This document shows positions 14,408 through 56,345 of a DNA stretch of 64,000 bases, piece after piece. Source of the DNA: a virus (lineage: Duplodnaviria > Heunggongvirae > Uroviricota > Caudoviricetes); IMG/VR virus record IMGVR_UViG_3300044638_005715, positions 39,398-103,397 of that record; one strand, 5' to 3'. The number at the start of each line of letters is the position of its first letter. Positions within the stretch are counted from its first letter, which is position 1. The notes beneath the pieces were generated by a model. The model ran no database searches and was not told the DNA's origin. It saw nothing but the letters and a program-made list of their open reading frames with translations. The position numbers and the translations under genes are program-made.

Positions 14408-14433
14408 AACACAGTTTTACTAATTTGCCCAGT

Positions 14434-39122: not shown

Positions 39123-39750
39123 TTTAAATATTGAAGATTGTAAATCACAGATTGGTCAAGACGTATGGATAACTAAAAAATTAAATGAAATGGATTTTAA
39201 TCCAAATGATTTTTACTTTGTTGATATTGGTGCTTATGATGGTTTGCACCTATCCAACACGTATGCATTTGAAAAAAATCTAGGGGCAAAGGGAGTGTGC
39301 GTAGAATGTAATCCACTTATGATCCAAGGGTTTAAATATAATAGACCAAATTCTGATTTATGCACTAAGGCCATTTATACAGAAAGCGGACATAAATTAA
39401 AGTTTTCACTAAATGATTGCAATTCGTGCATTGATAATAATGGAGATTATGAAGTAGAGACCATAAGTATTAATGATTTATTAACAACATATAACGCCCC
39501 TCGAAATATAACATATATTAATTTAGATATTGAGGGATTAGAACCAGAAATTCTTGCCACTTTTGATTTTAGTAAATGGAATGTTTTAACATGGACAATT
39601 GAACATAATCATGTAGAAGCAAATAAGAATAAAATATTAGATATTCTACTCAAGCATAATTATATGGTTAAATTACATGAATGGGATATCTTTGCCTACA
39701 AAGATTTCTTAGAGCCCATTTATTATGTTGATGGTGTCCGCGTAAAATAA
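39115..39750 (+). CDS. FkbM-family SAM-dependent methyltransferase
   Basis: FVDIGAYDGLH (G-A-x-D-G) motif; start could also be 39097. Confidence 0.5.
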   Translation: MFNLNIEDCKSQIGQDVWITKKLNEMDFNPNDFYFVDIGAYDGLHLSNTYAFEKNLGAKGVCVECNPLMIQGFKYNRPNSDLCTKAIYTESGHKLKFSLNDCNSCIDNNGDYEVETISINDLLTTYNAPRNITYINLDIEGLEPEILATFDFSKWNVLTWTIEHNHVEANKNKILDILLKHNYMVKLHEWDIFAYKDFLEPIYYVDGVRVK

Positions 39751-39764
39751 TAAGGAAAAAAATA

Positions 39765-41228
39765 ATGAAAGAAATTAAGTGGGCCCCAAACCATATGCAC
39801 TCTAGTTATAGTTTGTTAGATGGTTTTGCTAAACCAGCAGACATTGCTAAAAGATGTAAAGAATATGGATATAAATCGGCGGCTATAACAGACCATGGAA
39901 ATATAGCTGGGTGTGTTCAACATTTTACAGCCTGTAAAAAAGAGGGCATTAAACCAATATTGGGTTGTGAATTCTATTTTAGTAAGGACGCGGGCCTTAG
40001 AGATTCTACCAATAAAGAGTTGAGCCACGTTGTAATATTATCTAAAAATTTGAATGGATGGAATGAATTGATAGGGTGTGTTTCTGAAAGTAACTTGCCG
40101 GAAAATTTTTACTTTAAGCCGCGTATTGATTATACTATCATGAAAAAATTTCTTGGTAACAATAATCACATATGTATTACGGGACACCCAGGAACAGAAC
40201 TATCAAATGCCTTATTTGAAGATATGAAATTCTATAGATCAAAATCTGTAGAAGATGCTAGAAAATTTATAAAGCCAAACTGGAAAGAATGTGCCTTAGA
40301 AGTGATAGAAAAACACCTAGAAATATTTGGTGATAATCTCTATATTGAAATTCAGCTTATTGATAAAGATAATTTACCAGCTAGTCTTGTAATAGCCGAA
40401 TGTTTAAGAGAGATTGTTGCCGAGTCTAATGGTAAATTAAAGCCAATAGCTACTGCTGATAGTCACTATGTAGATAGAAAAGATGCTGAATCACAAAGGA
40501 TTTTGTTAGCATCGGCCCTGAATAAAACAATTCCTGGTATAATGAATGATTTAAGAAATAATATTGATGTTCCTCTAGGAACATTCTTTATTTCAGATAA
40601 TTATCATATACCTACGCTGGGTGAAATGATAGAAAATCACACCGTGGAAGAATTATTAAATGCATATTTAGCTGCTGAATCTTGCGAAGAGTATGATATT
40701 ACGAACGCACCGCTTCTACCAAAATTTAATGTTGATGATGAATTTACATATCTTTCTGAATTATGTAATAAGGGATGGAAAAATAAGATTGAGCATTTAT
40801 TGACGGATGAAAATCGCCACATATATAAGGAAAGACTAGATAGGGAATTAGGAGTCATTCAAGAGGCGGGACTTTCTGGTTATTTCCTTATTGTTCAAGA
40901 CATTATGGAATTTGTTAGGTCTAAAAATTGGATTCCTACAACACCGGGCAGAGGATGTTTTTTACCAGATACTAATGTAAAAATGTCAAATGGATCATAT
41001 TGTCCAATATCAATGATTGAGTCAGGAGATAAAGTAATAGATTGTTACAAAAATGAACAAGAAGTATATGCAACATTAGAATATGACATTGATGAGGATA
41101 TTATAGAAATTGAATTTATTAATAATAAAATAGTGAGATGTACAAAAGATCATAAATTTTTAACAAAAAATCGTGGATGGGTACAAGCTCAATATCTTAA
41201 TGATGAAGATGATATTGTTGAGGTTTAA
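39765..41228 (+). CDS. dnaE: DNA polymerase III alpha (DnaE) N-terminal fragment (PHP domain) fused to split-intein N half
   Basis: PHP motif MHSSYSLLDG...ITDHGN. Extein ends ...PTTPGRG, where DnaE continues GSAAGS. The following 90 aa starting CFLPDTNVKM resemble the N-terminal blocks of a split intein (Int-N), then a stop. Confidence 0.75.
   Translation: MKEIKWAPNHMHSSYSLLDGFAKPADIAKRCKEYGYKSAAITDHGNIAGCVQHFTACKKEGIKPILGCEFYFSKDAGLRDSTNKELSHVVILSKNLNGWNELIGCVSESNLPENFYFKPRIDYTIMKKFLGNNNHICITGHPGTELSNALFEDMKFYRSKSVEDARKFIKPNWKECALEVIEKHLEIFGDNLYIEIQLIDKDNLPASLVIAECLREIVAESNGKLKPIATADSHYVDRKDAESQRILLASALNKTIPGIMNDLRNNIDVPLGTFFISDNYHIPTLGEMIENHTVEELLNAYLAAESCEEYDITNAPLLPKFNVDDEFTYLSELCNKGWKNKIEHLLTDENRHIYKERLDRELGVIQEAGLSGYFLIVQDIMEFVRSKNWIPTTPGRGCFLPDTNVKMSNGSYCPISMIESGDKVIDCYKNEQEVYATLEYDIDEDIIEIEFINNKIVRCTKDHKFLTKNRGWVQAQYLNDEDDIVEV
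40956..41225 (+). mobile_element. split intein N-terminal half (Int-N, 90 aa)
   Basis: Cys1, CFLPDTNV...G (block A), TKDHKF (block B, TxxH). Confidence 0.65.
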
Positions 41229-41310: not shown

Positions 41311-42159
41311 ATGGGCTCAATATCGTTAAATGATTTTAGATTATTAAATTATAATTCAAATGGTATATCAAATTTTAAACTAATAAATGGAATATGTACT
41401 AAATGTAATTCTGATTTTTCGTATTCTACAATATATAAATTTATTAGAAATAGAATAAATAAAATAAATAAAAAACACTTATGGGATACGTGTCAAAAAT
41501 GTTGGCATTTAATTAATACTGTTGAAGATCAATACTGGATGGAAAACAATTCAAAAATCCAGTCAAAAATACAGTCTTCCGAGGAACAAAAAAGAAAAAA
41601 TTCTATAGGTGTTTCTAAATCGTGGACACATGATAGAAGGAAAAAAACTTCTGAATGGTTAAAAGAAAGATGGAAAAATGATGACAAATTTCGTAAAAAG
41701 GCATTAAATAATTTACAATGGACACAAATTAATGATAATAGGCGAGATAAAATATTAAAAGGAAGTTTAGGAAAGGGTGGTCTCAAAGGAATATATAATG
41801 ATATATATTATGATAGTGCGTTAGAATTATCTTACATTTTATATTGTATAGATAATCAAATTGAAATTATAAGATATAATATACAACCTATACATTATTT
41901 AGATGAAAATAAGAAAGATAGGGTATATATTCCAGATTTTATAATAAATAATGATACAATTATAGAAATTAAAGGATATGGAATATATTATCAAAAAAAC
42001 TATGAGAGATCGATATTAAAAATTGAATCATTAAAATCATGGTCTAGTAAAAATGGATTTAAATATCAAATAATATTTAATACAGAAGACATATTAAAAA
42101 AAAACTATAAAAAGGCTAGAAAAATACATCATGAAAATAAAAACAAAAAAGATTTTTAG
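41311..42159 (+). CDS. free-standing PD-(D/E)xK endonuclease with N-terminal zinc-finger/NUMOD-like repeats (putative homing endonuclease) between the dnaE halves
   Basis: VYIPDFIINNDTIIEIKGYG (PD...ExK); CTKCNSD...CQKCWH; overlaps the Int-C start by 29 nt. Confidence 0.55.
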   Translation: MGSISLNDFRLLNYNSNGISNFKLINGICTKCNSDFSYSTIYKFIRNRINKINKKHLWDTCQKCWHLINTVEDQYWMENNSKIQSKIQSSEEQKRKNSIGVSKSWTHDRRKKTSEWLKERWKNDDKFRKKALNNLQWTQINDNRRDKILKGSLGKGGLKGIYNDIYYDSALELSYILYCIDNQIEIIRYNIQPIHYLDENKKDRVYIPDFIINNDTIIEIKGYGIYYQKNYERSILKIESLKSWSSKNGFKYQIIFNTEDILKKNYKKARKIHHENKNKKDF

Positions 42160-42235
42160 ATACAGTGGAAAGGTATATGATCTATCTGTTGAAAATACAA
42201 GTTGTTATAATGTAGAGGGTTTAGGAGTTCATAAT
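42131..42235 (+). mobile_element. split intein C-terminal half (Int-C)
   Basis: Ends HN followed by a +1 Ser. Confidence 0.65.
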
Positions 42236-44485
42236 TCTGCTGCTGGATGTCTAATATCATATTTAATCGGAATTACTAATATTGATCCATTAAAGCACGA
42301 TTTGATTTTCGAGCGATTTTATTCGGCGGCAAGAAAAGGTAGTTTGCCAGATATTGATCTTGATGTGCCCGCAGAGCATAGAGAGGATGTGATCGAATAC
42401 ATTAAGCAAAAGTATGGAAATGAAAATGTATCACAAATGGTCACATTTAATAGTTTGATGGGTAGATCTGCATTAAAAGAGGTACTAAAGGTTTATAATG
42501 CTGTATCATTTATAGAAATGAATGAAATGACTAAGGATATACCAAATGAAGCTTCTATTGCTGACGACCTACAAGAAAGTGGCGAAACATCTATCATTAT
42601 GTGGGCCCTGAAAAATCGTGCCTCTAAACTTGAGAAGTGGTGTAAAATAGATGAGCAGGGTAATTTAACTGGGGATTGTGCCGATTATTTTAGAATGGCA
42701 ATTAATATAGAGGGCACAAAAAAATCACAAGCTAAACATGCGGCCGGTATTATTATTTCGGCTTCTCCATTAAAAAATGTTTGCCCAATGGTAAGGGATA
42801 AAGAGGGGCTCCCAGTAGCTGGTTTTGAAATGAATGATTTGGAACTATTGGGCCATGTTAAGTTCGATATATTGGGTGTAGATATTCTAAGTAAAATTAT
42901 TAAAATATGTGAAAGATGCAATATTAGTATTGATGAAATGCATAAATTTAATGATAAAAAAACATGGGACCTTATTAGTAGTGGTGATGTAATTGGCATA
43001 TTCCAATTAGAAAAGCAAAAGCGTTGGGCAAAGAAACTCAAGCCGCAAACTATTGAGCATCTTTCTGCCCTTATTGCTATTATTAGGCCGGGAGTTGCTG
43101 ATGTTATTGTCGATGGCAAATCTATGACCGAACACTATATTGATAGAAAAAATGGTGATGAAGATATTACATATGAATTTCCATGTCTAGAGCCCATACT
43201 AGAAAATACATATGGTATTATGATTTATCAAGAGCAGGCATTAAGAATAGCATCGGAAATCGCAGGTTTTAATTTAAAAGAGGCAGATGCACTTAGAAAA
43301 GCAATCGGCAAGAAATTAGTTGATAAAATGGCCGAGTTGAAAACAAAATTTATTGATGGATGTGTTAATAATGAAAAGCTAAACCTAGAAGACTCCACAA
43401 GATTATTCGAGTGGATTGAGAAGTCTCAAAAATATCTGTTTAATGCAAGCCATAGTTTTTCTTATGCTTATAATGCTTATTATTCGGCATTTTGTAAGGC
43501 AAATAATATATATGATAGGTATCCAGTATTTTATGAGATTTATTTAGAGCATAGCAAAAGAAAGCAAGATTCACTTCATGAAATTAGGTCTATGGTAAAT
43601 AATGCAAAATTAAATGGATTTGAAGTTAGGGCTCCTGACTTATGTAATTTTAATTTAAGCTTTACACTTTCAGAAGATTTATCTACGATTTATTTTGGTG
43701 TATCGAGTGTTAAGGATGTTGGAGAAAAAGAATGTAGTAAAATACTAAATATATTTAATGAATTAGAAGATTCATGCAATATGAATTGGATGCAAGTTTT
43801 AACACAAATATGTGATAAGATTAATAAAAAAGCAGTTGAAGCTCTCATATCTGTAGGGGCCCTTAATGGTCCAAAAAATAAGGTTTCAAGATTAAAAATG
43901 CTTTATGAGTATGGTTTTTGGAGAGAACTAACGAAAAATGAACAGAAATTCATTAAAGAAAATATGATAAATGGATCTTTAAAAGATAATGTAAAGAATT
44001 TAATAAATAATGCAAAAATACAAGCTAAAAGATTATCTGCTGTAACATCTATTTATAAATCTCTTGAATCGCCACCTTATGGTATATCTGATAATATAGA
44101 AATTATATCTCAATTAGAATCTAAATATTTAGGAATATCACTTTCATGTGCAAAGAGTGATTTTTTAATACCGGAAGTAAATACTACATGTAGAGAGGTG
44201 GCATTAAATTCTTGTAGGAATTATGATATTAGTATAGGTGTTGAAATTAAATCATATCATGAGCACATTATAAACAATAAGAATAGTAAAAATCATGGAT
44301 TAACGATGGCATTTCTATCATGTGAAGATAACACTGGTGTTTTGGATAATATAATATTATTTCCTGAAGAATATAATCGTTTTAAAGATTTGCTTTTTGA
44401 TGGAAATACAATTATAATTGTTGGTGACGCTTCAAAAAATCGCGATGGCTCACTTATTGTAAAAAATATGATATCTACTATATAG
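42131..44485 (+). CDS. dnaE: split-intein C half (35 aa) fused to the DnaE C-terminal fragment
   Basis: MKIKTKKIFRYSGKVYDLSVENTSCYNVEGLGVHN parallels the Npu DnaE Int-C MIKIATRKYLGKQNVYDIGVERDHNFALKNGFIASN. The +1 Ser begins SAAGCLISYLIGITNIDP, the DnaE motif. Confidence 0.75.
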   Translation: MKIKTKKIFRYSGKVYDLSVENTSCYNVEGLGVHNSAAGCLISYLIGITNIDPLKHDLIFERFYSAARKGSLPDIDLDVPAEHREDVIEYIKQKYGNENVSQMVTFNSLMGRSALKEVLKVYNAVSFIEMNEMTKDIPNEASIADDLQESGETSIIMWALKNRASKLEKWCKIDEQGNLTGDCADYFRMAINIEGTKKSQAKHAAGIIISASPLKNVCPMVRDKEGLPVAGFEMNDLELLGHVKFDILGVDILSKIIKICERCNISIDEMHKFNDKKTWDLISSGDVIGIFQLEKQKRWAKKLKPQTIEHLSALIAIIRPGVADVIVDGKSMTEHYIDRKNGDEDITYEFPCLEPILENTYGIMIYQEQALRIASEIAGFNLKEADALRKAIGKKLVDKMAELKTKFIDGCVNNEKLNLEDSTRLFEWIEKSQKYLFNASHSFSYAYNAYYSAFCKANNIYDRYPVFYEIYLEHSKRKQDSLHEIRSMVNNAKLNGFEVRAPDLCNFNLSFTLSEDLSTIYFGVSSVKDVGEKECSKILNIFNELEDSCNMNWMQVLTQICDKINKKAVEALISVGALNGPKNKVSRLKMLYEYGFWRELTKNEQKFIKENMINGSLKDNVKNLINNAKIQAKRLSAVTSIYKSLESPPYGISDNIEIISQLESKYLGISLSCAKSDFLIPEVNTTCREVALNSCRNYDISIGVEIKSYHEHIINNKNSKNHGLTMAFLSCEDNTGVLDNIILFPEEYNRFKDLLFDGNTIIIVGDASKNRDGSLIVKNMISTI

Positions 44486-44494
44486 GGGATTTTA

Positions 44495-44791
44495 ATGAAT
44501 AATTGTATATTTTCTGGATATGTATATGAAAAACCAGAATTACAAATGGTTGACGGTGTTAGCTATTGTAACTTTTCTCTACTAGTCAACGAGGAAAGAA
44601 AGGGTAATAAAATAGAAACTATTATAGATTGTGAAATTTGGGATTCTGGAGCGGAAGCATTTGTTAATCTAGCTAACGGTGGGGATGAGGTATTCATTGA
44701 ATCATCTGCTCGCAATACAGAATTTGATGAAGAAGAATATGTTATATTCCGTGTAAATAAATTTAAGATCATTTTTGGAAATAATAAATGA
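44495..44791 (+). CDS. small OB-fold (SSB-like) protein
   Basis: FSGYVYEKPELQ...IDCEIWDSGAEAF resembles the SSB L45/beta pattern. Confidence 0.4.
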   Translation: MNNCIFSGYVYEKPELQMVDGVSYCNFSLLVNEERKGNKIETIIDCEIWDSGAEAFVNLANGGDEVFIESSARNTEFDEEEYVIFRVNKFKIIFGNNK

Positions 44792-46398
44792 AAAAAAGAA
44801 TATTGATGGTATCAGAATCTTCTGTGCTATCTAGTGGTTATGCTATATACACGTATGAATTATTGAAAAGACTTAATGAAATTGAAGATTTTGAAATTGC
44901 AGAACTAGCCTGCTTTGTGGATCATGATGATCATAGATTGAAACATATTCCATGGAAAGTTTATGTTAATAAACCTCCGGAAAATTCACCACAATATAAT
45001 ATATATAAGTCGGAAAAGTCATATGAATTTGGGGAATTTACATTTAATGATGTGTGTCTTGATTTTCAGCCTACGCATGTAATAGATATTCGAGATTTCT
45101 GGATGTTCGCCTATCAGGGGCATTCTCCATATCGTGATCATTACAATTGGCTTATTATGCCTACAGTAGATGCACATCCACAAAATAAAGAATGGATTGA
45201 TTATTTTAAATGTGCCGATGGTGTATTAACATATTCTGAATTTGGTAGGACAACATTATCAAAACAATGCCCATCAATTAATTTAAAGGGTGTGGCATCT
45301 CCAGCGGCGAATAGTTGTTTTAAGCCAATGGATAAGCGTATTATACGTGATAAATTTAATATTGCGGAAGATGCTTTTATTATAGGCACTGTAATGCGTA
45401 ATCAAAGGCGTAAACTTTTTCCGGATTTATTTCGTTCATTTGATAGGCTTTTATCAGAATCAAAGTCCAAAAATTTATATTTATATTGCCATACTGGCTT
45501 TCCAGATGTTGGGTGGTCAATTCCAGAATTATTAATTGAATACAATTTATCTGATAAGGTACTATTTACATATAAGTGTGATAATTGCCAACATATTGAA
45601 AGTTGTTTCTTTCATGATGCTATTAAACAATGTAAAAAGTGCAAAACACTATCTTCTAAATTATCTTGCACATCATTTCCTATTCAGGATTCAGAATTAG
45701 CTGAAATATATAATATATTTGATGTTTATGTTCAGTTGGCGAATAGTGAGGGATTTGGTATGCCGGTTGTTGAGGCCGCATCATGTGGTTTACCAATTAT
45801 TGCTACATATTATTCAGCAATGCAATCAACTATTGATAATCTAGATCAATTCGGTGTTTCTATCAAACACTATACCAAGGAAATAGAAACAGGCTGTTTA
45901 AGGGCGGCCCCCGAGATTAATGAACTTAATTCTTATTTACATACCCTTATGACAGATACTGTTATTTATAATGATTATAAATTTAGAGCACTCGATAATA
46001 AGGCCCTATATAATTGGGACAGGACTGCTAAAGTTTGGGAAAATGCAATAAGATCTACTAATAATAAGAAATTACCGTGGAATAGTAGGCCCCAAATACA
46101 TGAGCCATCACCGCTCTTAGATATTCCAGATCCGTTAAACCAAGCTAATTTTCTTATCATAGAAGTTTTAGGAAAGCCAGATTGGATTGGATCATTTATA
46201 TGGCAAAGATTAGTCAATGATCTCACGTATAAATCAAGGATAGGTAATATGAACCAGGGTTTCTATTTTAATGAAGATTATATTAAAGATCACACATTTA
46301 GGCAGCCATTTAGTTTTACCGATGCTTATAATGAATGTGTTGGTATTAGAAACTATTATAATCAATGCGAAATGAAAAGGTGCCAAAATTATGAATAA
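44788..46398 (+). CDS. glycosyltransferase family 4-like (GT-B) with an extra Cys-rich insert
   Basis: YVQLANSEGFGMPVVEAASCGLPIIAT (E-x7-E region). Confidence 0.55.
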   Translation: MKKRILMVSESSVLSSGYAIYTYELLKRLNEIEDFEIAELACFVDHDDHRLKHIPWKVYVNKPPENSPQYNIYKSEKSYEFGEFTFNDVCLDFQPTHVIDIRDFWMFAYQGHSPYRDHYNWLIMPTVDAHPQNKEWIDYFKCADGVLTYSEFGRTTLSKQCPSINLKGVASPAANSCFKPMDKRIIRDKFNIAEDAFIIGTVMRNQRRKLFPDLFRSFDRLLSESKSKNLYLYCHTGFPDVGWSIPELLIEYNLSDKVLFTYKCDNCQHIESCFFHDAIKQCKKCKTLSSKLSCTSFPIQDSELAEIYNIFDVYVQLANSEGFGMPVVEAASCGLPIIATYYSAMQSTIDNLDQFGVSIKHYTKEIETGCLRAAPEINELNSYLHTLMTDTVIYNDYKFRALDNKALYNWDRTAKVWENAIRSTNNKKLPWNSRPQIHEPSPLLDIPDPLNQANFLIIEVLGKPDWIGSFIWQRLVNDLTYKSRIGNMNQGFYFNEDYIKDHTFRQPFSFTDAYNECVGIRNYYNQCEMKRCQNYE

Positions 46399-47509
46399 AA
46401 AACCAAAAGTTTTATATATAGGTAATTATAATGATGGCACTGGATGGGGAAATGCCGCACTAAATAATATATTATCTATGCATTCAGCAGGTATTAATGT
46501 TGTTCCAAGGTCAATTACATATAATAATAATAAACAATGTAATAACATTACAATATCAGAATTAGAAATGTCTAATAATATTATGGATGTTGATGTATGT
46601 ATACAACATGTCTTGCCTCAATTATATATTTATAAAAATGGAATGAAAAATATAGGATATTATGAAATAGAAACTCTGTATATAGATAGTGAAATTTATA
46701 ATTATCTGGAATTAATGGATGAAATATGGGTTGCTAATGTAGATTCTTATATTGCATGTTGTGGTGCGGGTTTACTCCCATCTAAGGTAAAAATTATTCC
46801 ACATTCGATTGATATGGATTATATAACAAATCATCAATCATCATTGCAAATTAAGGAATTAAAAAACTCATTTAATTTTATGTTTGTTGGTGAGTTTATA
46901 ACGAGAAAAAATATAAAAGCATTGCTTAAAGCCTATTATTTGGGATTTGATCAGCGTGTGCAAAATGTAAATTTATTTTTGAAATTAAATGGTCCTACGC
47001 CCAATATTAATTATAATATAAAGCTATATAATGACATGGACCAAATAGTAAGAGATGAACTGCATTTGGATTATTACAATAACGTAAGCGTAATGTTTGA
47101 TTACCTAAATAAAGATGATTTATTATCTGTTATGAAACAATGCCATGCATTTGTGTGCCCAAGCTATGGAGAGTCATGCTGTATACCCGCCATGGAATCT
47201 TTAGCTATGGGAATTCCATCAATATGGACAAGTGGCATTGGCATTGGTGATTATGGGGTAGGTATTCCTGTTAATTCTACTGAAGAACCATGTAATCATA
47301 TCTTATCACCAATTTCAAATCTTTATAATGGTAGAAATCAATGGAGGTCTATACATATACAAGAATTAATTAATGCTATGCAATTAATGGTAAAGTTGAA
47401 ATCTGATCAAAAATTCTTGTCTGAATTTGAGACAAAGAGACAGGAATTTATTAATAAATATAGTATTGGTGCAATTGGTAAAAAAATCAAAGAGGTTCTA
47501 CATGCCTAG
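46391..47509 (+). CDS. glycosyltransferase (GT-B-like)
   Basis: FVCPSYGESCCIPAMESLAMGIPSIWT. Confidence 0.5.
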   Translation: MNKKPKVLYIGNYNDGTGWGNAALNNILSMHSAGINVVPRSITYNNNKQCNNITISELEMSNNIMDVDVCIQHVLPQLYIYKNGMKNIGYYEIETLYIDSEIYNYLELMDEIWVANVDSYIACCGAGLLPSKVKIIPHSIDMDYITNHQSSLQIKELKNSFNFMFVGEFITRKNIKALLKAYYLGFDQRVQNVNLFLKLNGPTPNINYNIKLYNDMDQIVRDELHLDYYNNVSVMFDYLNKDDLLSVMKQCHAFVCPSYGESCCIPAMESLAMGIPSIWTSGIGIGDYGVGIPVNSTEEPCNHILSPISNLYNGRNQWRSIHIQELINAMQLMVKLKSDQKFLSEFETKRQEFINKYSIGAIGKKIKEVLHA

Positions 47510-48461
47510 TATACAAGGAATTATGGCGGCCGTTAATCATAGTGGGCCCCTAAATATTATTACCATTGGTTGTGCTCACGAACGATATGAACAAACTTTG
47601 GCCCTCACTGGGCACAATTTTTATTCTCTTAAATATCAAAAAGCATGGAATAATGAATATGGTATCAGACCTAAAAATTATTTTGAATTAAATTCGCTAC
47701 CAGATATATTTGATTATCACTTAATTTTGTCGCATGTGTCAGATGAAAGAATATATATTGCCAAAGAACTATCTGAAATGTTGGGTGTGCCCGTTATTCG
47801 ACACACGCACACACTTCCATTTAGCGAAGTAGAAAAAGATCTGTTTAAATCTATTCAAGTAGATTTGGACACATTTATATCTGCTTATAGTGCATCGGAA
47901 TGGGGTTCTACTAATCCAGCAACTGTTATAAATCATGGATTAGATATTGGATTTTGGAATGATAGTGGAAGAAGCTATGAAAATTCAGATAATACATGTT
48001 TATCTGTTGTAAATTTTTGGAAAGATAGGGATTCTGCATGTGGTTGGAATTTTTGGAATGAGGCTACTCACGATATACCAAAAGTTGTATGTGGTAATAA
48101 TCCAGGACTATCGGAACCAAAACAACCCCATCAATTAAAAAAAATGTATTATAACTCAAGAATATTTATCAATACATCTTTAAGGTCTCCAATTCCCATG
48201 TCATTATTGGAAGCAATGGCATGTGGATGTGCGGTTATTTCTACTAATACATGCATGATTCCTGAAATTATTGAAAATGGTTATAATGGATTTTTATGTG
48301 ATTCTCCCGAAGAAATGAATCGGCAATGTAAATTGCTTTTGTCACAGCCTGAATTAGCTAATATAATTGGTAAAAGGGCGGCTGAAACTATTCGCAGTCA
48401 TTTTAATCATGAGAATTTTATACGGTCATGGGACAATATTTTTAGAGGCATTATATCTTGA
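47502..48461 (+). CDS. glycosyltransferase family 4-like
   Basis: RIFINTSLRSPIPMSLLEAMACGCAVIST; start moved to the ATG with RBS AAAGAGG. Confidence 0.5.
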   Translation: MPSIQGIMAAVNHSGPLNIITIGCAHERYEQTLALTGHNFYSLKYQKAWNNEYGIRPKNYFELNSLPDIFDYHLILSHVSDERIYIAKELSEMLGVPVIRHTHTLPFSEVEKDLFKSIQVDLDTFISAYSASEWGSTNPATVINHGLDIGFWNDSGRSYENSDNTCLSVVNFWKDRDSACGWNFWNEATHDIPKVVCGNNPGLSEPKQPHQLKKMYYNSRIFINTSLRSPIPMSLLEAMACGCAVISTNTCMIPEIIENGYNGFLCDSPEEMNRQCKLLLSQPELANIIGKRAAETIRSHFNHENFIRSWDNIFRGIIS

Positions 48462-48865
48462 ATATTTATTTATCAAAAGAACAAAATAAAGATTATGAAG
48501 AGTTGGGATATATCCATATTGCAGACATATCATTTTTAGATAATTTTGTGCTTGATGGTGAGGCGACTTCTTTTGTTGTTTGTGATTATCTATCTTTATT
48601 TCATGAGTCAGAATTACTTAATATATTAAGTAAAATAATGAATAAAATTAGACTTAGTGGAACATTGATTATTACAGATGTTAATTATTATGCAATTAAA
48701 ATAATTAAAGATATTAATCAGTTCATTGAGGCCAATCAAACGAAGCAATTTATTAAGACTGATATTATAATAGATAACTTAAAAAATAATGGTTTTGAAA
48801 TTCAGCAAATGAAACTAAATCACGAAGTTTTTTGCATTAATAGCATTAGAAATCAAATGGGGTAA
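48458..48865 (+). CDS. hypothetical protein (glycosyltransferase island 2)
   Basis: 135-aa ORF. Confidence 0.4.
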   Translation: MNIYLSKEQNKDYEELGYIHIADISFLDNFVLDGEATSFVVCDYLSLFHESELLNILSKIMNKIRLSGTLIITDVNYYAIKIIKDINQFIEANQTKQFIKTDIIIDNLKNNGFEIQQMKLNHEVFCINSIRNQMG

Positions 48866-48868
48866 AAG

Positions 48869-49585
48869 ATGGAAGATATTGAATTTAATTGTTCTGATTG
48901 TATATTTGCATCGATTAAGAGTGGGGAACAAATTGGCTGTACCCTAAACAGAATTGAGAAATTCTCCAAGTATGGGGTCACTAGAAATAATGGTAGATAT
49001 CAATTTAATAGATATTGTAATGCATATAGACCACCAGAATATTTAGGAGATAAATCTATTAATATGGATAATTTTCTAAATGAAATACGGCCACGCATAA
49101 CATATATTATTGATTTTGATTATGATTTAACATTATTGCAGTCTAATATTGAGTCTATTAATGGCAATGTTGGAGCTATTATAATAATAAACGATAAGGT
49201 AGAATATAATGAGGATATAGCATTATATTTATCTAAGACTGGATATAAATATTATATAGTTCAAATGTTGCTGAATTTAAGTGAGCAAGATAAATTTGAT
49301 AATGCATTTAAACATGCCAAAAATGGATGGGCAATCTTTTTAACCAAGGGCGATAAATTGCCCAATAATTATTATGATATTATTGATACAAAAATTAACA
49401 TAGATATGACACGGCTAGCATTTTCTAAAAATGAGAAAGGAAGTTTTATCATACAGTCGGCCCTATATTCATTTATAAAAAGAAATGAGGAATTAAAAGG
49501 CGATACATTAGAGGAAAAAATAGGCCAAGTTAAAAAATCTGACCCAGATATTTTACCTCAATGGGGAGATTTATTTAATGCATAA
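48869..49585 (+). CDS. hypothetical protein with N-terminal Cys cluster (glycosyltransferase island 2)
   Basis: 238-aa ORF. Confidence 0.4.
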   Translation: MEDIEFNCSDCIFASIKSGEQIGCTLNRIEKFSKYGVTRNNGRYQFNRYCNAYRPPEYLGDKSINMDNFLNEIRPRITYIIDFDYDLTLLQSNIESINGNVGAIIIINDKVEYNEDIALYLSKTGYKYYIVQMLLNLSEQDKFDNAFKHAKNGWAIFLTKGDKLPNNYYDIIDTKINIDMTRLAFSKNEKGSFIIQSALYSFIKRNEELKGDTLEEKIGQVKKSDPDILPQWGDLFNA

Positions 49586-50369
49586 AGTAGCAATTATCAT
49601 TTGTAATTATAATTATGAAGATTATGTAGTGGGATCTATTGACTCGGCACTAAGTCAAATATTTTATGAAAATGAAGTTAGACTTAGTGTTTATTTTGTG
49701 GATGATGGATCGTCAGATGGATCATGGGAATTAGTTAAGAAAAATTTCTTATTTAATAATACCATATCTTTAATAACAGAACCTGATCGTAAATATGAGT
49801 GTTTTTCCTCCCTTATAAATAATGATGTGGGCACATATTGTTATAAGATAGAAAATTCGGGAGCTAGTAATGCTAGAAACTTCTTAATTAATAAGGCCAT
49901 AAATAATCATGATTATATATGTATATTAGATTCTGACGATATGATGGATAGATATAAGATTGATACATTATTATCATTAATTAATAAGTATGATGAAATT
50001 GGTGTTGCTTATGCTGATTATATATTAAATAAGCCACTATATACTACATATGAATATAAGGAAGATTATTCATTAGCTGGATTATATATAAGTTGTATTG
50101 TACATAGCGGATCTTTAATTAAATCTAATTATTTAAAAATGGTTCAATTAGACAATGGTGAATTTTATAAAACGTGTTTACATGGGCCAGCTAGTCAGGG
50201 GTTTATTGGTTCCACAGAAGATTATGATTTATGGTTTAGGTTATCTAAAGTATGTATGTTGGCACACTGTCCACAACCATTAACAATAGTAAATGAGCAT
50301 GGTAGAAATCAATCAAGTAAAATGACACCGCAGATATTTGCAGATAATATAAGGAAAATGAATGTATAA
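49578..50369 (+). CDS. glycosyltransferase family 2 (GT-A)
   Basis: IIICNYNYEDYV, DDGSSDGS, DSDD motifs. Confidence 0.6.
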   Translation: MHKVAIIICNYNYEDYVVGSIDSALSQIFYENEVRLSVYFVDDGSSDGSWELVKKNFLFNNTISLITEPDRKYECFSSLINNDVGTYCYKIENSGASNARNFLINKAINNHDYICILDSDDMMDRYKIDTLLSLINKYDEIGVAYADYILNKPLYTTYEYKEDYSLAGLYISCIVHSGSLIKSNYLKMVQLDNGEFYKTCLHGPASQGFIGSTEDYDLWFRLSKVCMLAHCPQPLTIVNEHGRNQSSKMTPQIFADNIRKMNV

Positions 50370-51051
50370 TATCACAGTAGCTATATTAGCGGCCGGTATT
50401 CCAAAAAAAATGAAATCATATGGCCCAACATCACTTATTAAAGTAGATGATGATCGAATATTACTAGATGACCAAATTAATAAAATTAGATATATTTATA
50501 AAAACGCAAATATTGTAATTGTCGCAGGGTATGAATTTCAAAAAATAAAGCGTAAATTAAAATCTCCCAAGGTGGAATTAATAGAAAATCTCCATTTTGA
50601 TTCAACGAATTCGGCACATAGCTTATTATTAGCTACTAAAAATAACCCGGTAGATAATTTATTAATGATACATGGCGATATATTATTTAATGTAGATACA
50701 TTGAAATATATTAGCAATATACATTATTCTGAAAATTCAGCTATACTATATGATCAGAATAATATGATTAAGCCTAATAAGCCCGGTATTTTGAAAAACC
50801 AATATGTATTAGAGCATATAAATTACTTACATAAAAATAAATGGGCACAAATAGCATTCTTTAACAAGGGCGAATATAATAAGTTACTAAAAGTCAACCC
50901 TGGCAATCGCTATAGTTTTGAATTGATTAATGAAATTAATAGTAATGAAAATAGTGTTTTCTATTGCCATAGCCCAAATAATATGAAATTAATAGAAATT
51001 GAATGTACTAAGGATTTAACAAGTGAAAAATTTAAAAGTATTAATAGCTAG
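50362..51051 (+). CDS. sugar-nucleotidyltransferase-like protein (MobA/IspD/GlmU fold)
   Basis: N-terminal VAILAAGIPKKMKSYGP (LAAGxGxR-like). Confidence 0.45.
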   Translation: MYNITVAILAAGIPKKMKSYGPTSLIKVDDDRILLDDQINKIRYIYKNANIVIVAGYEFQKIKRKLKSPKVELIENLHFDSTNSAHSLLLATKNNPVDNLLMIHGDILFNVDTLKYISNIHYSENSAILYDQNNMIKPNKPGILKNQYVLEHINYLHKNKWAQIAFFNKGEYNKLLKVNPGNRYSFELINEINSNENSVFYCHSPNNMKLIEIECTKDLTSEKFKSINS

Positions 51052-52102
51052 TGATGGTATGCACGCTCACTTTTTTGAGCGTCAGGGTTGGTTAAATGCA
51101 TTCAATGCTATTCCAGGTGTACAGGCATTGATGTATGAGTGTAAAAAATATAAGGCATTTGATGTTTTCGACACATTTGAGCCAGACATTTTTATAGGTC
51201 AATTATATAATTTAGATGATGCAACATTTAAATGTATATTAGAAAGGCCAAATCTTAAAGTGGCTTTGCGTGCTGGTGATTGGGGTGATTTTCAAAATAC
51301 ATTTGATCATTCTAAGCATCCAACTATGCTATTTACCACAGATGAAGATATACGAAATATAAAAAGTTTAAAAGAACAAACTGGGCAACCATCATATGTA
51401 TTTTGCCACTATGATCAAGAAGGAATTGAGAAAACACATAATTATTTTCGGGACATATTAAATATAAATATCATGGGCCTTCCAATGGGGGCCGATGTTT
51501 TCTTATATGGTGGTGGTAAACATTTACCAGAATATGAATGTGATATTAGCTTTATTGGGGGGTGGTGGCACAATAAGGCAAAAAATATAGATAAGTGCTT
51601 ACGGCCACTTTGCTATCCTGTCGGGGCTTATAATATTAAGGTTTTTGCATGGCAGCCATGGCCCCATCTTCCACAGTATTGCGGCAATTTAGATAACTCA
51701 TTAGCCAAGCATGTTTTTGCCTCTTCTAAAATATGCCCCAATATTAGTGAACCTCATTCAACTGAATTTGGCATAGATATTAATGAGAGATCATTTAAGA
51801 CATTATGTGCGGGAGGATTTTGCATATATGATAATGTGGAGGCAGCTAAAAGACTATACAGGGATGGTGAGGAAGTTGTATTCTACAATGATGAAAGTGA
51901 ATTCCGAAAAATCATAGATTACTATCTTGTGAATAAAGATGAGGCCCGATTAATTGCGGCGAATGGTCAAAAAAGAGTTTTTAATGATCATACATATTTT
52001 GATAGGGTAAATCAAATATTAGAGGGTTTCGGTATTAATAAGAAGGAAGAGATAAAATCAACTAAATGGAAAGTGATAAATGATCAAATCAATAATATTT
52101 AG
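51023..52102 (+). CDS. hypothetical protein, possible glycosyltransferase
   Basis: Track start is GTG; an alternative ATG lies at 51059. Confidence 0.4.
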   Translation: MKNLKVLIASDGMHAHFFERQGWLNAFNAIPGVQALMYECKKYKAFDVFDTFEPDIFIGQLYNLDDATFKCILERPNLKVALRAGDWGDFQNTFDHSKHPTMLFTTDEDIRNIKSLKEQTGQPSYVFCHYDQEGIEKTHNYFRDILNINIMGLPMGADVFLYGGGKHLPEYECDISFIGGWWHNKAKNIDKCLRPLCYPVGAYNIKVFAWQPWPHLPQYCGNLDNSLAKHVFASSKICPNISEPHSTEFGIDINERSFKTLCAGGFCIYDNVEAAKRLYRDGEEVVFYNDESEFRKIIDYYLVNKDEARLIAANGQKRVFNDHTYFDRVNQILEGFGINKKEEIKSTKWKVINDQINNI

Positions 52103-52922
52103 TAAAAATCGCCCCCTACAATTAGATTTAACTTTAAGTAGTATAAAGGAAAATTTTATTAGTAGGGGATCTGTATCTGTCATATGCTATATTGATGACC
52201 CATATATTGAATCTTACAAAAGGGTCGAATCTGAACATCCAGATATAAAATTTATAAATGAAAAACTTCACTCGGGGCATCTATTAGATATAGTAATTGA
52301 AGAAATTATTAATGGTGAAAAATATGTGTCATTCTTCACTGATGATATAATATTTTATCAGGAATTTAATTATTCATCTAATGACCTAAATGACATATTT
52401 TCTATACAATCCATGGCATGTTTATCGCTTAGGCTTGGTATTAATACGATATTAAGAAATGCTGAACAAAACATTCAAGACAATATTCCAGAAGTATATC
52501 GCCATGAAAATGGTTTATTGATTTGGGACAGATTATCTATACCGCCTGGAGGTTATTGGGCCTATCCATTATCAGTTGATGGTCATATATTTGAAAAGGG
52601 AAAAATATTACCAATTATTAGGGCCATTGATAAAATACAAATACATGTGTATCCATCTCAAAGATCACCCAATAAATTAGAAGAACTTATGCAAATGTTC
52701 TTTTTTCATGTTCCAAATTTAATGTCGTGTCCAGAATATAGCTGTATTGTAAATAGCCCCAATAACAGAGTGCAGAATGTTATATTAAATCAATATGGTA
52801 ATAAATTTAATCATAGCCCAAGTGATTTATTAGACTTGTATATGGGGGGTCATCGAATACAATTATCAGATTTAAATATAAACAATATTAAATGCCCACA
52901 CACAGAGATTAAATTAGTATGA
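52080..52922 (+). CDS. hypothetical protein (glycosyltransferase island 2)
   Basis: 280-aa ORF. Confidence 0.4.
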   Translation: MIKSIIFSKNRPLQLDLTLSSIKENFISRGSVSVICYIDDPYIESYKRVESEHPDIKFINEKLHSGHLLDIVIEEIINGEKYVSFFTDDIIFYQEFNYSSNDLNDIFSIQSMACLSLRLGINTILRNAEQNIQDNIPEVYRHENGLLIWDRLSIPPGGYWAYPLSVDGHIFEKGKILPIIRAIDKIQIHVYPSQRSPNKLEELMQMFFFHVPNLMSCPEYSCIVNSPNNRVQNVILNQYGNKFNHSPSDLLDLYMGGHRIQLSDLNINNIKCPHTEIKLV

Positions 52923-53812
52923 TTTTATTAACACATGTTGGAAATCCGATACCTAATTATGTATTTTACTCTATTATACATTTAAGAAAATATAATCCTA
53001 TAGCTGATATAGTATTTATAACGAATGAAAATATGCAAAATAATAATACTATGAATCTATTAAGGAAATACAATATTATTGTTATTGATGCAAATGATTA
53101 TTCCGACAATATGCTAGTAAAGGATCTAAATAGATTAACATGGATTAAAGATTTGCACCCATTGGGCCCGCCAAGTACATATGGTAGCCAACCTAATTTT
53201 TGGCACCTTACAATGGAACGTATATTCTATATTAATGCATTTTTACAAAAACAAAATATAAATAATGTACTACATATAGAAAATGACAACGTGATGTTTT
53301 ATGATTACAATATGGCATTTAATTATTGCGATCAAGACTCTATATCCTGTGTTCATAGGAAACATTATGGAGAAGATTCAACACTATTTAGTTTTGTAGG
53401 TATAAAAAACAATAAGATTTTACACACCACATGTTTAAAAATGTTGGAATTAGTTGCACTAGGTGAAAAAAAATTACAGTCTAAATATGGGCTATCACAT
53501 ATATCAGAAATGCACTTGTTAAATATAATTAGATCAGAGAACGACACTATAAAATATTTCCCGATGTTGCCGGGTGAATCCGAATATATTTTTGATCCTT
53601 ATGGTTATGGGGCCTATTTGTTGGGTGATAATATGAACCATGGTCCAGGCCACATTGATATCACAGATGATGTTGGAAAATTATTATCATCCGAACAAAT
53701 TAAACTTAGTCTGGTTAACAATATTCCATATCTTTCTCTTTCTTATAATAAGAAATCATACAAGATATTTAATCTCCATGTTCATAGAAAAAATATAGAA
53801 AAATTATTGTAA
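52919..53812 (+). CDS. hypothetical protein (glycosyltransferase island 2)
   Basis: 297-aa ORF. Confidence 0.4.
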   Translation: MILLTHVGNPIPNYVFYSIIHLRKYNPIADIVFITNENMQNNNTMNLLRKYNIIVIDANDYSDNMLVKDLNRLTWIKDLHPLGPPSTYGSQPNFWHLTMERIFYINAFLQKQNINNVLHIENDNVMFYDYNMAFNYCDQDSISCVHRKHYGEDSTLFSFVGIKNNKILHTTCLKMLELVALGEKKLQSKYGLSHISEMHLLNIIRSENDTIKYFPMLPGESEYIFDPYGYGAYLLGDNMNHGPGHIDITDDVGKLLSSEQIKLSLVNNIPYLSLSYNKKSYKIFNLHVHRKNIEKLL

Positions 53813-53833
53813 AATATTGAATTTAAACATATA
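53805..53833 (+). promoter_or_regulatory. possible sigma70-like promoter TTGTAA-N17-TATAAT
   Basis: Upstream of the 53866 gene. Confidence 0.3.
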
Positions 53834-53865
53834 ATATTGTAACAAGTTGATTCAAGGATAATTAA

Positions 53866-54321
53866 ATGAATAACACGCTAGCGGCATTAGTAAATGATTT
53901 GGGGAATTCACAATCGAATTTCTTTATGATTAAAGAATTTAATAGTGGTGTAATCAAATCGCCCTTCTGTTTTTATAATAATATTTATCCTCACATAATA
54001 CAGCCAAATTTTGCTGTAATGAATGTATCATATTTACCGCATTTCAATGGTTCATTATTTTGTACAACTGTTAATTGTGCCGATATAGCATTACGTGCTC
54101 AAAGCAATTACAAAATATATTTATATATGTGGGATATGACATTTATGAAATGTAATGATGATTACACTTACAATATGTCAATATTTAGGAACCCTGAAAT
54201 TTCTATAATTACAAGAAGTGTGAGTCACTATGCAGCAATTGAAAATTTTTGTGGTAAGAAACCAAAAGCCATAATTGATAATTGGGACATAAATAAAATT
54301 AAAGAATTAATCAAGGTGTAA
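53866..54321 (+). CDS. hypothetical protein
   Basis: 151-aa ORF. Confidence 0.4.
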   Translation: MNNTLAALVNDLGNSQSNFFMIKEFNSGVIKSPFCFYNNIYPHIIQPNFAVMNVSYLPHFNGSLFCTTVNCADIALRAQSNYKIYLYMWDMTFMKCNDDYTYNMSIFRNPEISIITRSVSHYAAIENFCGKKPKAIIDNWDINKIKELIKV

Positions 54322-54322
54322 T

Positions 54323-55075
54323 ATGGACACAGAAAAAGTTATTGAAGAATATGCAACCGGTAAAAGCATTAATCAATTATCAAAAGAATTTAATACATAT
54401 CCAGCAAAAATTTTTCGCTTATTGCAAAAGGCTGGATGTGAAATTAGAAATAAATCAGATGCTCAAAAAAATGCCTTAAAATCTGGAATCAGTATTCATC
54501 CTACAGAAGGTAAAAAGAGGCCACCATCTACTAAAAATAAAATTAGTGAAAAGAATGCCAAAGTATGGGAAAATAAAACTGACGAAGAACGTGAAAAATT
54601 TAAACAAAATGCTAAAGCTAATTGGAGCAAAAAGAGTGCTGATGAAAGAATTGCCATGGGAAAAAAGGCGGGTGCAGCATTACGTGAAGCATCTATTCAT
54701 GGATCGAGAGCAGAACATTTTGTAAGGGAAAAATTAGAAGAAAGTGGCTATAAAGTAGATGTTCACCGAACTGATATTGGTGGTAATTATGAGGTTGATT
54801 TATATCTGCCAAAACATCAAGTAGCTATTGAAATCGATGGCCCCCAACATTTTTTACCAGTTTTTGGAGCGGCTAGATTAGAAAAAAATATCAAATATGA
54901 CACAGTTAAAAATGGTATTTTATTGAGTAAAGGGATTAAAATTATCCGAGTGAAATATATTAAGAAACACAGTTCTCAAAAAATATTGAGGGATTTATGG
55001 AATAATATTGATAAAGAATTGCAAAGTATTATAAGTAAAAAAAATACAACTAATTTAATAGAAATAGAGGTTTAG
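54323..55075 (+). CDS. HTH plus PD-(D/E)xK (DUF559-like) endonuclease, putative homing endonuclease
   Basis: N-terminal HTH YATGKSINQLSKEFNTYPAKIFRLL; C-terminal YEVDLYLPKHQVAIEIDGPQHF. Confidence 0.5.
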   Translation: MDTEKVIEEYATGKSINQLSKEFNTYPAKIFRLLQKAGCEIRNKSDAQKNALKSGISIHPTEGKKRPPSTKNKISEKNAKVWENKTDEEREKFKQNAKANWSKKSADERIAMGKKAGAALREASIHGSRAEHFVREKLEESGYKVDVHRTDIGGNYEVDLYLPKHQVAIEIDGPQHFLPVFGAARLEKNIKYDTVKNGILLSKGIKIIRVKYIKKHSSQKILRDLWNNIDKELQSIISKKNTTNLIEIEV

Positions 55076-56324: not shown

Positions 56325-56345
56325 AAGGGGGCCTCATGCCCCCTT
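56325..56345. terminator. bidirectional rho-independent terminator between convergent modules
   Basis: AAGGGGGC-ctcat-GCCCCCTT, flanked by AAAAAG on the left and TTATTTTTTTG on the right. Confidence 0.85.

Follow-up and report, generated by a model that had tools for sequence, protein, structure and literature searches.

A multi-glycosyltransferase module conserved behind DnaE in a lineage of uncultured aquatic phages

We analysed a 64-kb stretch of tailed-phage DNA (positions 39,398 to 103,397 of IMG/VR record IMGVR_UViG_3300044638_005715, hereafter the window) and found that its region 44788-54321 consists of eleven genes that share one orientation and mostly overlap, and that at least seven of them encode soluble proteins of glycosyltransferase (GT) fold. 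These are three GT4 proteins, a GT2, a Glyco_trans_1_2 protein and two GT-A proteins that match no Pfam family; the remaining members are a LicC/GlmU-type nucleotidyltransferase and three conserved proteins (u135, u238 and u151). We are highly confident that the region is a genuine multi-GT module inherited within its lineage, and conserved gene order indicates that it dates back to the ancestor of an uncultured lineage of aquatic jumbo phages that encode DnaE. Of the acceptors considered, the likeliest is a phage structural protein, and the product would then be a glycan coat on the virion, as in chloroviruses, mimiviruses and some mycobacteriophages, a reading to which we assign a probability of roughly 0.45. 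An initial annotation, made from the sequence alone, had called a 'glycosyltransferase island' here, which was right but understated (four GTs); the open reading frames (ORFs) that it had placed on the + strand were borne out by the ORF list.

The block and its members

All genes of the block lie on the + strand. The initial annotation had put them directly after dnaE, which they do follow, but with a gene for a 98-residue single-stranded DNA-binding protein (SSB) in between, whose stop codon is overlapped by the start of the first GT gene, GT4a (44788-46398). This gene encodes a 536-residue GT-B protein of family GT4 (PF00534, 49.4 bits) in which the E-x7-E motif is present (E321-x7-E329), together with a four-cysteine insert (C264-x2-C267...C282-x2-C285) and a C-terminal extension of ~110 residues. 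Residues 1-423 are matched by phrog_2170, and the second and third of the best PDB sequence matches are GtfA/Gtf1, over ~40 residues around the donor site (E 2.5e-4). In an exhaustive search, 525 cluster representatives at E<=1e-30 shared its ~540-residue architecture.

Inteins are frequent in this family. Forty of the 150 best GT4a representatives (27%) are 690-1300 residues long and were counted as carrying one or two inteins, and Pfam found Intein_splicing and LAGLIDADG domains in all three long homologues tested. At least five insertion sites were mapped, one of them directly before the first Glu of E-x7-E (VYVQYA.↓C...HN↓[C/S]EGFG, arrows marking the intein ends). The GT4a of one relative (L034, 1593-4346) contains a site-95 intein, and the window's copy is intein-free. 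Titles and abstracts among the full-text literature matches listed indicated no report of intein-bearing phage glycosyltransferases. Inteins usually occupy conserved sites of indispensable, often DNA-related proteins; the abundance of inteins in GT4a therefore points to a key enzyme of the lineage, keeps a replisome-linked function alive as a reading, and hints that these phages need GT4a no less than their polymerase. The same property makes GT4a a convenient marker gene.

The two following genes also encode GT4 proteins. GT4b (46391-47509, 372 residues; PF00534, 42.7 bits) has E261-x7-E269, and GT4c (47502-48461, 319 residues; PF00534, 73.1 bits) has only the second Glu of the motif, the first being absent from many genuine GT4 enzymes. 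The start of GT4c at 47502 matches the JGI gene calls, and its C-terminal domain is BshA/EpsE-like (NCBIfam EpsE 7e-15, BshA 2e-14, both under the equivalog cut-offs). More generally, the NCBIfam equivalog matches of the block's GT4 proteins all fall far under their cut-offs, so that no specific function can be transferred to them. The initial annotation had described three GT4 proteins with E-x7-E: Pfam supports all three (cut-off 26.4 bits), but the complete motif is confined to GT4a and GT4b. Its GT2 call at 49578-50369, with DDGSSDGS and DSDD, stands as made: the encoded soluble GT-A protein of 263 residues scores 60.8 bits against PF00535 (cut-off 23.3), so that the Pfam check places the three GT4 proteins and the GT2 above gathering scores. 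The first 66 residues of the GT2 weakly match a GtrB-like PHROG (3e-4).

Two conserved genes separate GT4c from the GT2. The small protein u135 (48458-48865) is a core member across the lineage, found in 18 related loci by iterative profile search; in alignments it resembles the C-terminal half of a class-I methyltransferase that has no motif I for S-adenosylmethionine (SAM) binding, and its PDB profile matches are weak ones to SAM methyltransferases (E 0.3-1.5), with no match in Pfam, PHROGs or NCBIfam. Its neighbour u238 (48869-49585) aligns around four invariant cysteines (C8, C11, C24 and C50) followed by an alpha/beta region, and is limited to a clade with an expanded island (orthologues in L004, L005, L031, L032 and L034); neither it nor its divergent orthologues have a profile match in Pfam, PHROGs, NCBIfam or PDB.

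The gene at 50362-51051, in which the initial annotation had recognised a nucleotidyltransferase N-terminus, indeed encodes a LicC/GlmU-N-type nucleotidyltransferase with a homologue in the core of the whole lineage. The protein has no Pfam match of its own; it matches the NCBIfam GlmU N-terminus at 1.5e-11, and orthologues in four relatives match PF12804. A profile of 13 orthologues matches LicC (1jyk) over its full length at 2.3e-14, GlmU at 2.9e-6 (N-terminal half only) and 6pd1 at 2e-5, the last a nucleotidyltransferase/aminotransferase fusion that we take to be a phosphonate cytidylyltransferase; no RmlA-type match was returned by the family profile against PDB. HGD is kept, and in the loop LAAGIPKKMK a Lys replaces the Arg of G-x-G-x-R and the second Gly is absent. 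Because the LAAG...K loop and HGD are retained and the LicC and GlmU profiles match, the enzyme is very probably active, and its product could be a nucleoside or cytidine diphosphate (NDP or CDP) derivative of a sugar-1-phosphate or a phospho-alcohol. Its nearest solved relative, LicC, is a CTP:phosphocholine cytidylyltransferase, and the substrate may therefore be a non-sugar. Thus the earlier suggestion that the phage makes its own activated sugar keeps its enzyme, but the activated group may instead be a phospho-alcohol.

The next three genes, which the initial annotation had left among flanking ORFs without function, turn out to encode GT-fold proteins. The first (51023-52102, alternative start 51059) is a GT-B-type Glyco_trans_1_2 protein (PF13524, 84.3 bits, 1e-23) with orthologues in L005, L031, L032, L034 and L115. 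The second, u280 (52080-52922), has no Pfam model; T87-D88-D89 (DxD-type) is invariant in its family, and its AlphaFold2 model (predicted local distance difference test, pLDDT, 91.5) matches TarP best in Foldseek (1.5e-7), followed by SpsA and GnT-I. The third, u297 (52919-53812), belongs with retaining enzymes of the GT8/toxin-GT type; its E121-N-D123-N is invariant, and its model (pLDDT 88.9) has its best Foldseek matches in YeGT, SetA, glycogenin and XXYLT1 (E ~1e-7). On these predicted structures both qualify as GT-A-fold glycosyltransferases: Foldseek gives a probability of 1.0 to solved GT-A enzymes, at template modelling (TM) scores of just 0.4-0.5.

The two families differ in reach. 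More than 672 homologues of u280 were found, many from Tara Oceans, with members 24-32% identical in bacterial phyla including Verrucomicrobiota, Bacteroidota, Chloroflexi and Paenibacillus; a homologue in Geofilum rhodophaeum sits within an O-antigen-type cluster that includes Wzy_C, and member names across the homologue clusters contained nothing informative. For u297, only 14 homologues were found. A u297 homologue lies in another neighbourhood, at 7914-9661 of a distant 224-kb relative (L028), near a GT47-like gene and two DFP/Flavoprotein-domain genes resembling CoaBC (phosphopantothenoylcysteine synthetase/decarboxylase).

The last gene, u151 (53866-54321), occurs in 17 loci and always directly before an HNH-like gene (iterative hidden Markov model, HMM, search); neither u151 nor its divergent orthologues have a Pfam, PHROG, NCBIfam or PDB match. 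Since it is conserved as the terminal gene in every relative, the true right boundary of the block is 54321, and not 53812 as initially drawn. The HNH-type homing-endonuclease-like gene at 54323-55075, directly after the block, is itself kept in relatives.

An FkbM methyltransferase gene (39097-39750, + strand; PF05050, 7.1e-13, 49.5 bits, cut-off 22.7; probable true start 39103 or 39115) had been noted upstream, and its relation to the block has gained in substance: although 5 kb away, it is homologous (2.5e-15) to an FkbM gene inside the island of L034, and the island of L032 also contains one, which supports its placement as a probable displaced member of the glycan module. The block's GTs are all acidic (isoelectric points, pI, 5.0-6.7), and no hydrophobic segment was detected in any block protein (maximum 19-residue hydropathy 1.5).

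Conservation across the lineage and genomic setting

A scan with the C-terminal part of DnaE yielded 23 related viral loci. In ~19 of the 23 a GT4a orthologue (35-46% identity) stands directly after DnaE and SSB, and a nucleotidyltransferase homologue follows a few kb further on in 16. The order DnaE-SSB-GT4a recurs in ~25 related contigs of up to 243 kb, at 35-61% protein identity; in L032 a small sigma-factor-like gene separates GT4a from DnaE-SSB. Of the relatives found, L115 is the closest, and it matches the window gene for gene, in the same order, from DnaE through the - strand genes that follow the block. It is this synteny behind DnaE-SSB, with L115 fully collinear, that marks the block as ancestral to the lineage.

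Iterative profiles, direct comparison and gene calls define a universal core of GT4a, GT4b, u135, the nucleotidyltransferase homologue and u151, with GT4b adjoining GT4a in all loci (iterative HMM). In a short-island clade (L006 type) the island measures 5.8 kb and the catalytic motif is kept by GT4a only: the 334-residue GT4b homologue of L006 reads without E-x7-E, and the nucleotidyltransferase homologue (L006:17685-18356 and its orthologues in L007-L027) has lost LAAG and GD and kept its position. Because motifs were lost while position was conserved, these GT4b and nucleotidyltransferase homologues may have taken on non-catalytic, structural roles in a complex with GT4a.

In the window's own clade the island falls into two arms. 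The left arm (GT4a, GT4b, GT4c, u135, u238, GT2, nucleotidyltransferase, Glyco_trans_1_2 and u280) is conserved; the right arm, from u280 to u151, opens with u297 in the window and differs in gene content in each of the four expanded-island relatives compared. It consists of u297 alone in the window and L115. In L031 it holds u297, a 201-residue protein, a methyltransferase, and GT25-like and GT47-like proteins; in L034 it holds DUF6492, a u297-like protein, Methyltransf_24, GT47, GT10 and FkbM. L032, a marine assembly whose island is found again in run ERR594284 (L033), has FkbM, Caps_synth/GT32, GT47, a GT10 fucosyltransferase, a DegT aminotransferase and a second Glyco_trans_1_2 protein, with an epimerase/dehydratase directly before u280. 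Across the lineage the island ranges from 4.4 to 16.6 kb, and relatives' islands reach at least 10 GTs accompanied by epimerase/dehydratase, DegT aminotransferase, FkbM and other methyltransferases. The G+C content of the related phages spans 31-44%.

The phage itself appears to be uncultured and large. Among 50,697 phage records there was no DNA near-identical to the block; protein matches in cultured phages are to GT4 only (~21-25% identity, in S-CBS4, S-EIVl and TJE1), and the nucleotidyltransferase had none in the protein search of cultured phages. Sequence identical or related to the window was found in Logan, JGI, ENA and IMG/VR assemblies, with contigs of relatives reaching 171-243 kb. 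Given the distance of cultured phages and the size of these contigs, the source is probably an uncultured jumbo phage. Weinheimer and Aylward described PGC_A as a largely uncharacterised marine jumbo-phage group whose sole distinguishing gene is PolIII alpha (PMC9123017), and the window's DnaE lineage probably falls within it. An assignment to the moraphages was dropped, since these replicate with a family B polymerase (PMC12619734).

The window has a G+C content of ~31%, and every gene between 0.2 and 56.3 kb lies on the + strand. Pfam (60 ORFs scanned) and PHROGs (27 ORFs) identify this part as the phage's replication and nucleotide-metabolism module, with homologues of RIIA and RIIB, a Thg1-like protein, an IMPDH/GMP-reductase-like protein, ThyX, dCMP deaminase, both ribonucleotide reductase subunits, PhoH, a RecA/UvsX-like ATPase, DnaB, primase, a T4-gp1-type deoxynucleoside monophosphate (dNMP) kinase, a sigma-70-like factor and DnaE. 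From 56.4 kb large proteins are encoded on the - strand, converging with the + block; these genes (56.4-63.9 kb) are presumably structural, and none matches Pfam or PHROGs. No tRNA was found in the 64 kb, and a promoter scan was uninformative (141 matches vs 135 expected). Exactly where the two gene blocks converge lies a bidirectional intrinsic terminator (56325-56345, both strands; AAGGGGGCCTCATGCCCCCTT) with an 8-pair stem (6 G-C) and T-runs on either side. No comparable intergenic terminator was found between 39.7 and 56.3 kb, where neighbouring genes mostly overlap or abut and the largest gaps are ~80 bases around an endonuclease ORF inside DnaE and 53 bases before 53866.

Several of the neighbouring genes are interrupted. 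DnaE is split (39765-41228, 41311-42159, 42131-44485) as a 'fractured' gene: its N-terminal part closes with an intein-N half of ~90 residues (GRG↓CFLPDT...), its C-terminal part opens with an intein-C half of ~35 residues (...GLGVHN↓SAAGC), and a free-standing TnsA/endonuclease-I-like ORF lies between the two. In L005, L031 and L115 DnaE is undivided and reads straight through the junction as GRG-SAAGC, and L006-type relatives have a DnaQ-like exonuclease gene between the two parts. The ribonucleotide reductase small subunit (21743-23674, 643 residues) contains an intein, and a PD-(D/E)XK nuclease (35494-37479, 661 residues) contains a LAGLIDADG domain. In ThyX (10575-11693, 372 residues) the 191-position Pfam domain is spread over residues 24-316, which implies an insertion of ~100 residues. 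A second, smaller glyco-locus is found at 14425-18135, where a GT4 gene (17068-18135; PF00534, 61.5 bits) is preceded by genes for three proteins of 274-321 residues without Pfam or PHROG match.

Candidate acceptors of the glycan

Neither in the window nor in five related islands with gene calls (L030/L031, L032/L033, L034, L115) did Pfam find a priming phosphoglycosyl transferase, Wzx, Wzy, ligase or ABC transporter. With no membrane segments and no primer, flippase or polymerase, the chemistry looks fully cytoplasmic, as in viral protein glycosylation, and the many diverse GTs together with the amino- and deoxy-sugar enzymes of relatives point to a long, tailored heteroglycan. We propose that the block would be co-transcribed with the replication genes, because most of its neighbouring genes overlap or abut and no convincing terminator precedes the one at 56325-56345. 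GT4a, as the sole member that is both universal and motif-keeping in every clade examined, would put the first sugar on the acceptor. The other GT-B and GT-A enzymes would then lengthen the glycan from host nucleotide sugars and one phage-activated donor, FkbM would methylate a sugar, and the variable right arm would diversify the outer, distal part of the glycan.

A virion protein as the acceptor is favoured by this cytoplasmic design, which chlorovirus, mimivirus and mycobacteriophage virion glycosylation share, by the number and diversity of the GTs, and by the combination of a core arm with a hypervariable outer arm, a layout that diversifying selection on a surface-exposed glycan would be expected to produce. 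Two likenesses agree with it: one of the weak matches of GT4a is to GtfA, a protein O-GlcNAc transferase, and the best fold matches of u297 are protein-glycosylating GT-A enzymes. Several points nevertheless weigh against a virion coat. Pfam and PHROGs recognised no structural protein in the window, and hence no link between the GTs and a virion protein, and the block sits in the replication module, whereas mycobacteriophage GT genes lie beside those for capsid or tail. Solubility or peripheral attachment is also seen in GT4 and GT2 enzymes working on lipid-linked intermediates, so that a host-envelope target is compatible with the same proteins. Likeness in fold to protein-modifying GTs, at TM-scores of 0.4-0.5, does not predict the acceptor. 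Finally, the many inteins of GT4a and its place beside replisome genes would be more typical of an enzyme of DNA metabolism.

The strongest competitor, which we nonetheless consider unlikely, is remodelling of the host envelope, with peripheral membrane GTs acting on undecaprenyl-linked or lipid A-core intermediates of the host and relying on host primer, flippase and ligase. The infected cell would end up with a changed O-antigen, capsule or teichoic acid, for example to block superinfection or to keep progeny from sticking to debris. The GT families of the relatives (GT4, GT2, GT10, GT25, GT32 and GT47) are typical of surface polysaccharide, the Geofilum cluster around the u280 homologue comprises a NodZ-like fucosyltransferase, a GT4, an acetyltransferase, two GT2 and Wzy_C, and the best fold match of u280, TarP, is a prophage enzyme that modifies wall teichoic acid. 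A LicC-like enzyme would fit phosphocholine-type decoration of envelope glycans, and lipopolysaccharide (LPS) genes in 76% of marine PGC_C jumbo phages were read as host-surface change (PMC9123017). Yet the window and the five related islands are devoid of membrane protein, flippase, polymerase and priming transferase, and a pathway of 7-12 enzymes would have to suit the export systems of hosts diverse enough for phage G+C contents of 31-44%. Moreover, the window ORFs scanned yielded no recognisable integrase, repressor or other lysogeny gene, and the long-lived cell that benefits from seroconversion would therefore be missing.

Glycosylation of DNA, in which GT4a and possibly more of the GTs would sugar modified bases to evade restriction and CRISPR, much as the T4 alpha/beta-glucosyltransferases or recently described methyltransferase/5mYOX/GT clusters do, strikes us as improbable to a further degree. 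It draws on the position of GT4a behind DnaE-SSB across related loci, on its inteins (including the E-x7-E site), which recall the intein-carrying DnaE and ribonucleotide reductase of the window, and on the T4-gp1-type dNMP kinase encoded there. It also draws on phage enzymes described by Pyle et al., BshA/MshA-like GT-B and TarP- and GT8-like GT-A proteins, which share the nearest neighbours found here. But the window holds the phage's nucleotide-metabolism cluster, and no ThyA-type hydroxymethylase, 5mYOX/TET-JBP or C5-methyltransferase, the partner enzymes of such a pathway, appeared among its scanned ORFs; dCMP deaminase and ThyX point to ordinary dTMP synthesis. Seven to twelve GTs with tailoring enzymes also far exceed what DNA glycans need, with their maximum of three sugars (10.1101/2023.12.21.572611), and DNA offers no ready rationale for a hypervariable outer arm. 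The acidity of the block's GTs likewise speaks against this target, and u280 is without the DDD...EDY/F motifs of DNA-modifying GT-A enzymes.

A further argument for marked DNA comes from base composition. The window contains 33 GGGCCC vs 4.1 expected from dinucleotide shuffles, and 189 copies of the underlying enriched word GGCC vs 38 expected; over base-composition expectation the excess is ~37-fold and ~5-fold, respectively. An origin of GGGCCC as a Gly-Pro codon artefact was rejected, the motif occurring in all three frames and in just 8 of 44 Gly-Pro pairs, so that the signal is one at the DNA level; AGGCCT, CCCGGG and CCGCGG are absent. The 5-fold GGCC excess of the subclade could thus mark a modification motif, but it is common only to the closest relatives, L115 and L031 (L030), and is missing from most island-bearing relatives (L005, L006, L032 and L034).

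Marginally less probable again is a reading that would join the GT4a-DnaE-SSB adjacency, the at least five intein sites and the GGCC excess as one DNA-marking system. Here GT4a would be a replisome-coupled, lineage-essential GT that starts a new nucleic-acid or replication-protein glycosylation without a nearby ThyA/TET hydroxymethylase, and accessory GTs would extend it to long, clade-specific glycans.

The initial annotation had described the block as nearly devoid of the GGGCCC that is dense elsewhere and had taken this as a hint of a different evolutionary origin. The enrichment in the window is real, but the deficit in the block falls short of significance (2 copies where 5.1 are expected, P=0.12): two GGGCCC or fewer occur in 27% of windows of equal size, and the longest GGGCCC-free gap (8.2 kb) falls outside the block. 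GGCC in the block is as expected (26 vs 26.7), the G+C content at third codon positions (GC3) is 0.219 in the block and 0.223 elsewhere, and the k-mer distance of the block is only moderately high (5th of 110 overlapping windows, ~+2 standard deviations). Recent acquisition of the 9 kb from a bacterium or another virus can appeal to that k-mer distance, to the gain and loss of right-arm genes over evolutionary time and to the bacterial homologues of individual GT families, but it is largely refuted by the native composition, by the absence of tRNAs from the window and of integrase-type matches among the ORFs scanned around the block, and by a gene order after DnaE-SSB that is shared down to 35% identity, with L115 collinear.

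Comparison with known systems

Several familiar kinds of gene cluster differ from the block. The integral membrane component of Wzx/Wzy- or ABC-dependent polysaccharide clusters is absent from the window and the five related islands. Of a GtrA/GtrB/GtrC seroconversion module there is the weak GtrB-like PHROG match (3e-4), with no membrane segments and no lysogeny genes seen in the window. The picture of a horizontally acquired island is contradicted by native GC3 and GGCC, the lack of tRNA in the window and synteny in ~25 contigs, and that of a DNA sugar-hypermodification cluster by the failure to find an enzyme generating hydroxymethyl-pyrimidine among the window ORFs scanned (60 with Pfam, 27 with PHROGs), where the pyrimidine enzymes are ThyX and dCMP deaminase.

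A partial parallel exists in the accessory Sec system, where GtfB is an acceptor-binding pseudo-GT paired with catalytic GtfA. Here a second GT-B-like protein, GT4b, invariably comes after GT4a and is seemingly non-catalytic in one clade. However, the similarity of GT4a to GtfA is confined to ~40 residues (E 2.5e-4), the window's GT4b keeps E-x7-E, and the serine-rich acceptor and the SecA2/Y2 genes are not present here.

Also similar are the phage enzymes of Pyle et al. (bioRxiv 10.1101/2023.12.21.572611 / Cell Rep 2024), TarP-/GT8-like GT-A and BshA/MshA-like GT-B proteins that glycosylate 5-hydroxymethylcytosine and whose genes often lie beside polymerases and other DNA-metabolism genes (10.1101/2023.12.21.572611). 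Such hypermodification clusters have a neighbouring C5-methyltransferase with 5mYOX, or a ThyA-type hydroxymethylase, and build one to three sugars; in the present case those partner genes were not found in the window scans, and GTs are several times as numerous.

Marine cyanomyoviruses such as P-SSM2 carry LPS/polysaccharide gene clusters. Like these and the PGC_C phages, for which a role in host-surface change has been suggested (PMC9123017), the lineage described here consists of large marine phages with clusters of GT and sugar-modifying genes, but those are T4-like phages of cyanobacteria with a family B polymerase (PolB), whereas the present lineage encodes DnaE. Moraphages, an aquatic metagenomic jumbo lineage, have four GT orthologous groups in their core genome, with an unresolved target (PMC12619734). 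They resemble the present phages as uncultured aquatic jumbo phages with core GTs, and differ as a separate lineage with a family B polymerase.

In mycobacteriophages, GT genes adjoin structural genes and the C-terminal tails of structural proteins are modified. As summarised in PMC12619734, Freeman et al. 2023 reported that mycobacteriophage GTs, sometimes with methyltransferases, decorate capsid and tail-tube subunits with glycans that shield the virion, and one example given in PMC11256854 has two GT genes. Phage-encoded cytoplasmic GTs are common to both cases; the mycobacteriophages have few of them, whereas the present phages have 7-12, and these stand beside DnaE/SSB.

To our knowledge, observations of GT gene clusters in large marine phages go back twenty years, with no target demonstrated. 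Phage GT clusters as such are thus already known; here one is defined as a modular hallmark of its lineage. The DnaE-type jumbo-phage lineage is cosmopolitan and comes partly from Tara Oceans, and it now has one precisely defined GT module, with a predicted universal initiating enzyme, a conserved core arm, a hypervariable outer arm and no membrane step seen, and with two GT-A families (u280 and u297) added that no Pfam model covers, the homologues of u280, more than 670 in number, being mostly marine.

The nearest functional analogues, on our preferred reading of a virion glycan coat, are the chlorovirus PBCV-1 (A064R, A111/114R, A075L) and mimivirus, whose GT and sugar-synthesis clusters glycosylate capsid or fibrils. 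Common to both sides are virus-encoded soluble cytoplasmic enzymes of many GT families, a sugar methyltransferase and nucleotide-sugar enzymes, which there build, and here would build, a long heteroglycan without endoplasmic reticulum, Golgi or membrane carriers, with a core glycan and clade-specific outer decoration. The giant viruses differ in their eukaryotic hosts and in a proven acceptor (major capsid protein or fibrils), the present system being that of a bacteriophage, known from its genes and gathered in one operon-like block inside a replication module, and the likeness is not based on sequence orthology. Were the virion coat confirmed, chlorovirus/mimivirus-style autonomous glycosylation would extend to open-ocean bacteriophages, with a bearing on adsorption, grazing, aggregation and the sugar content of viral particles.

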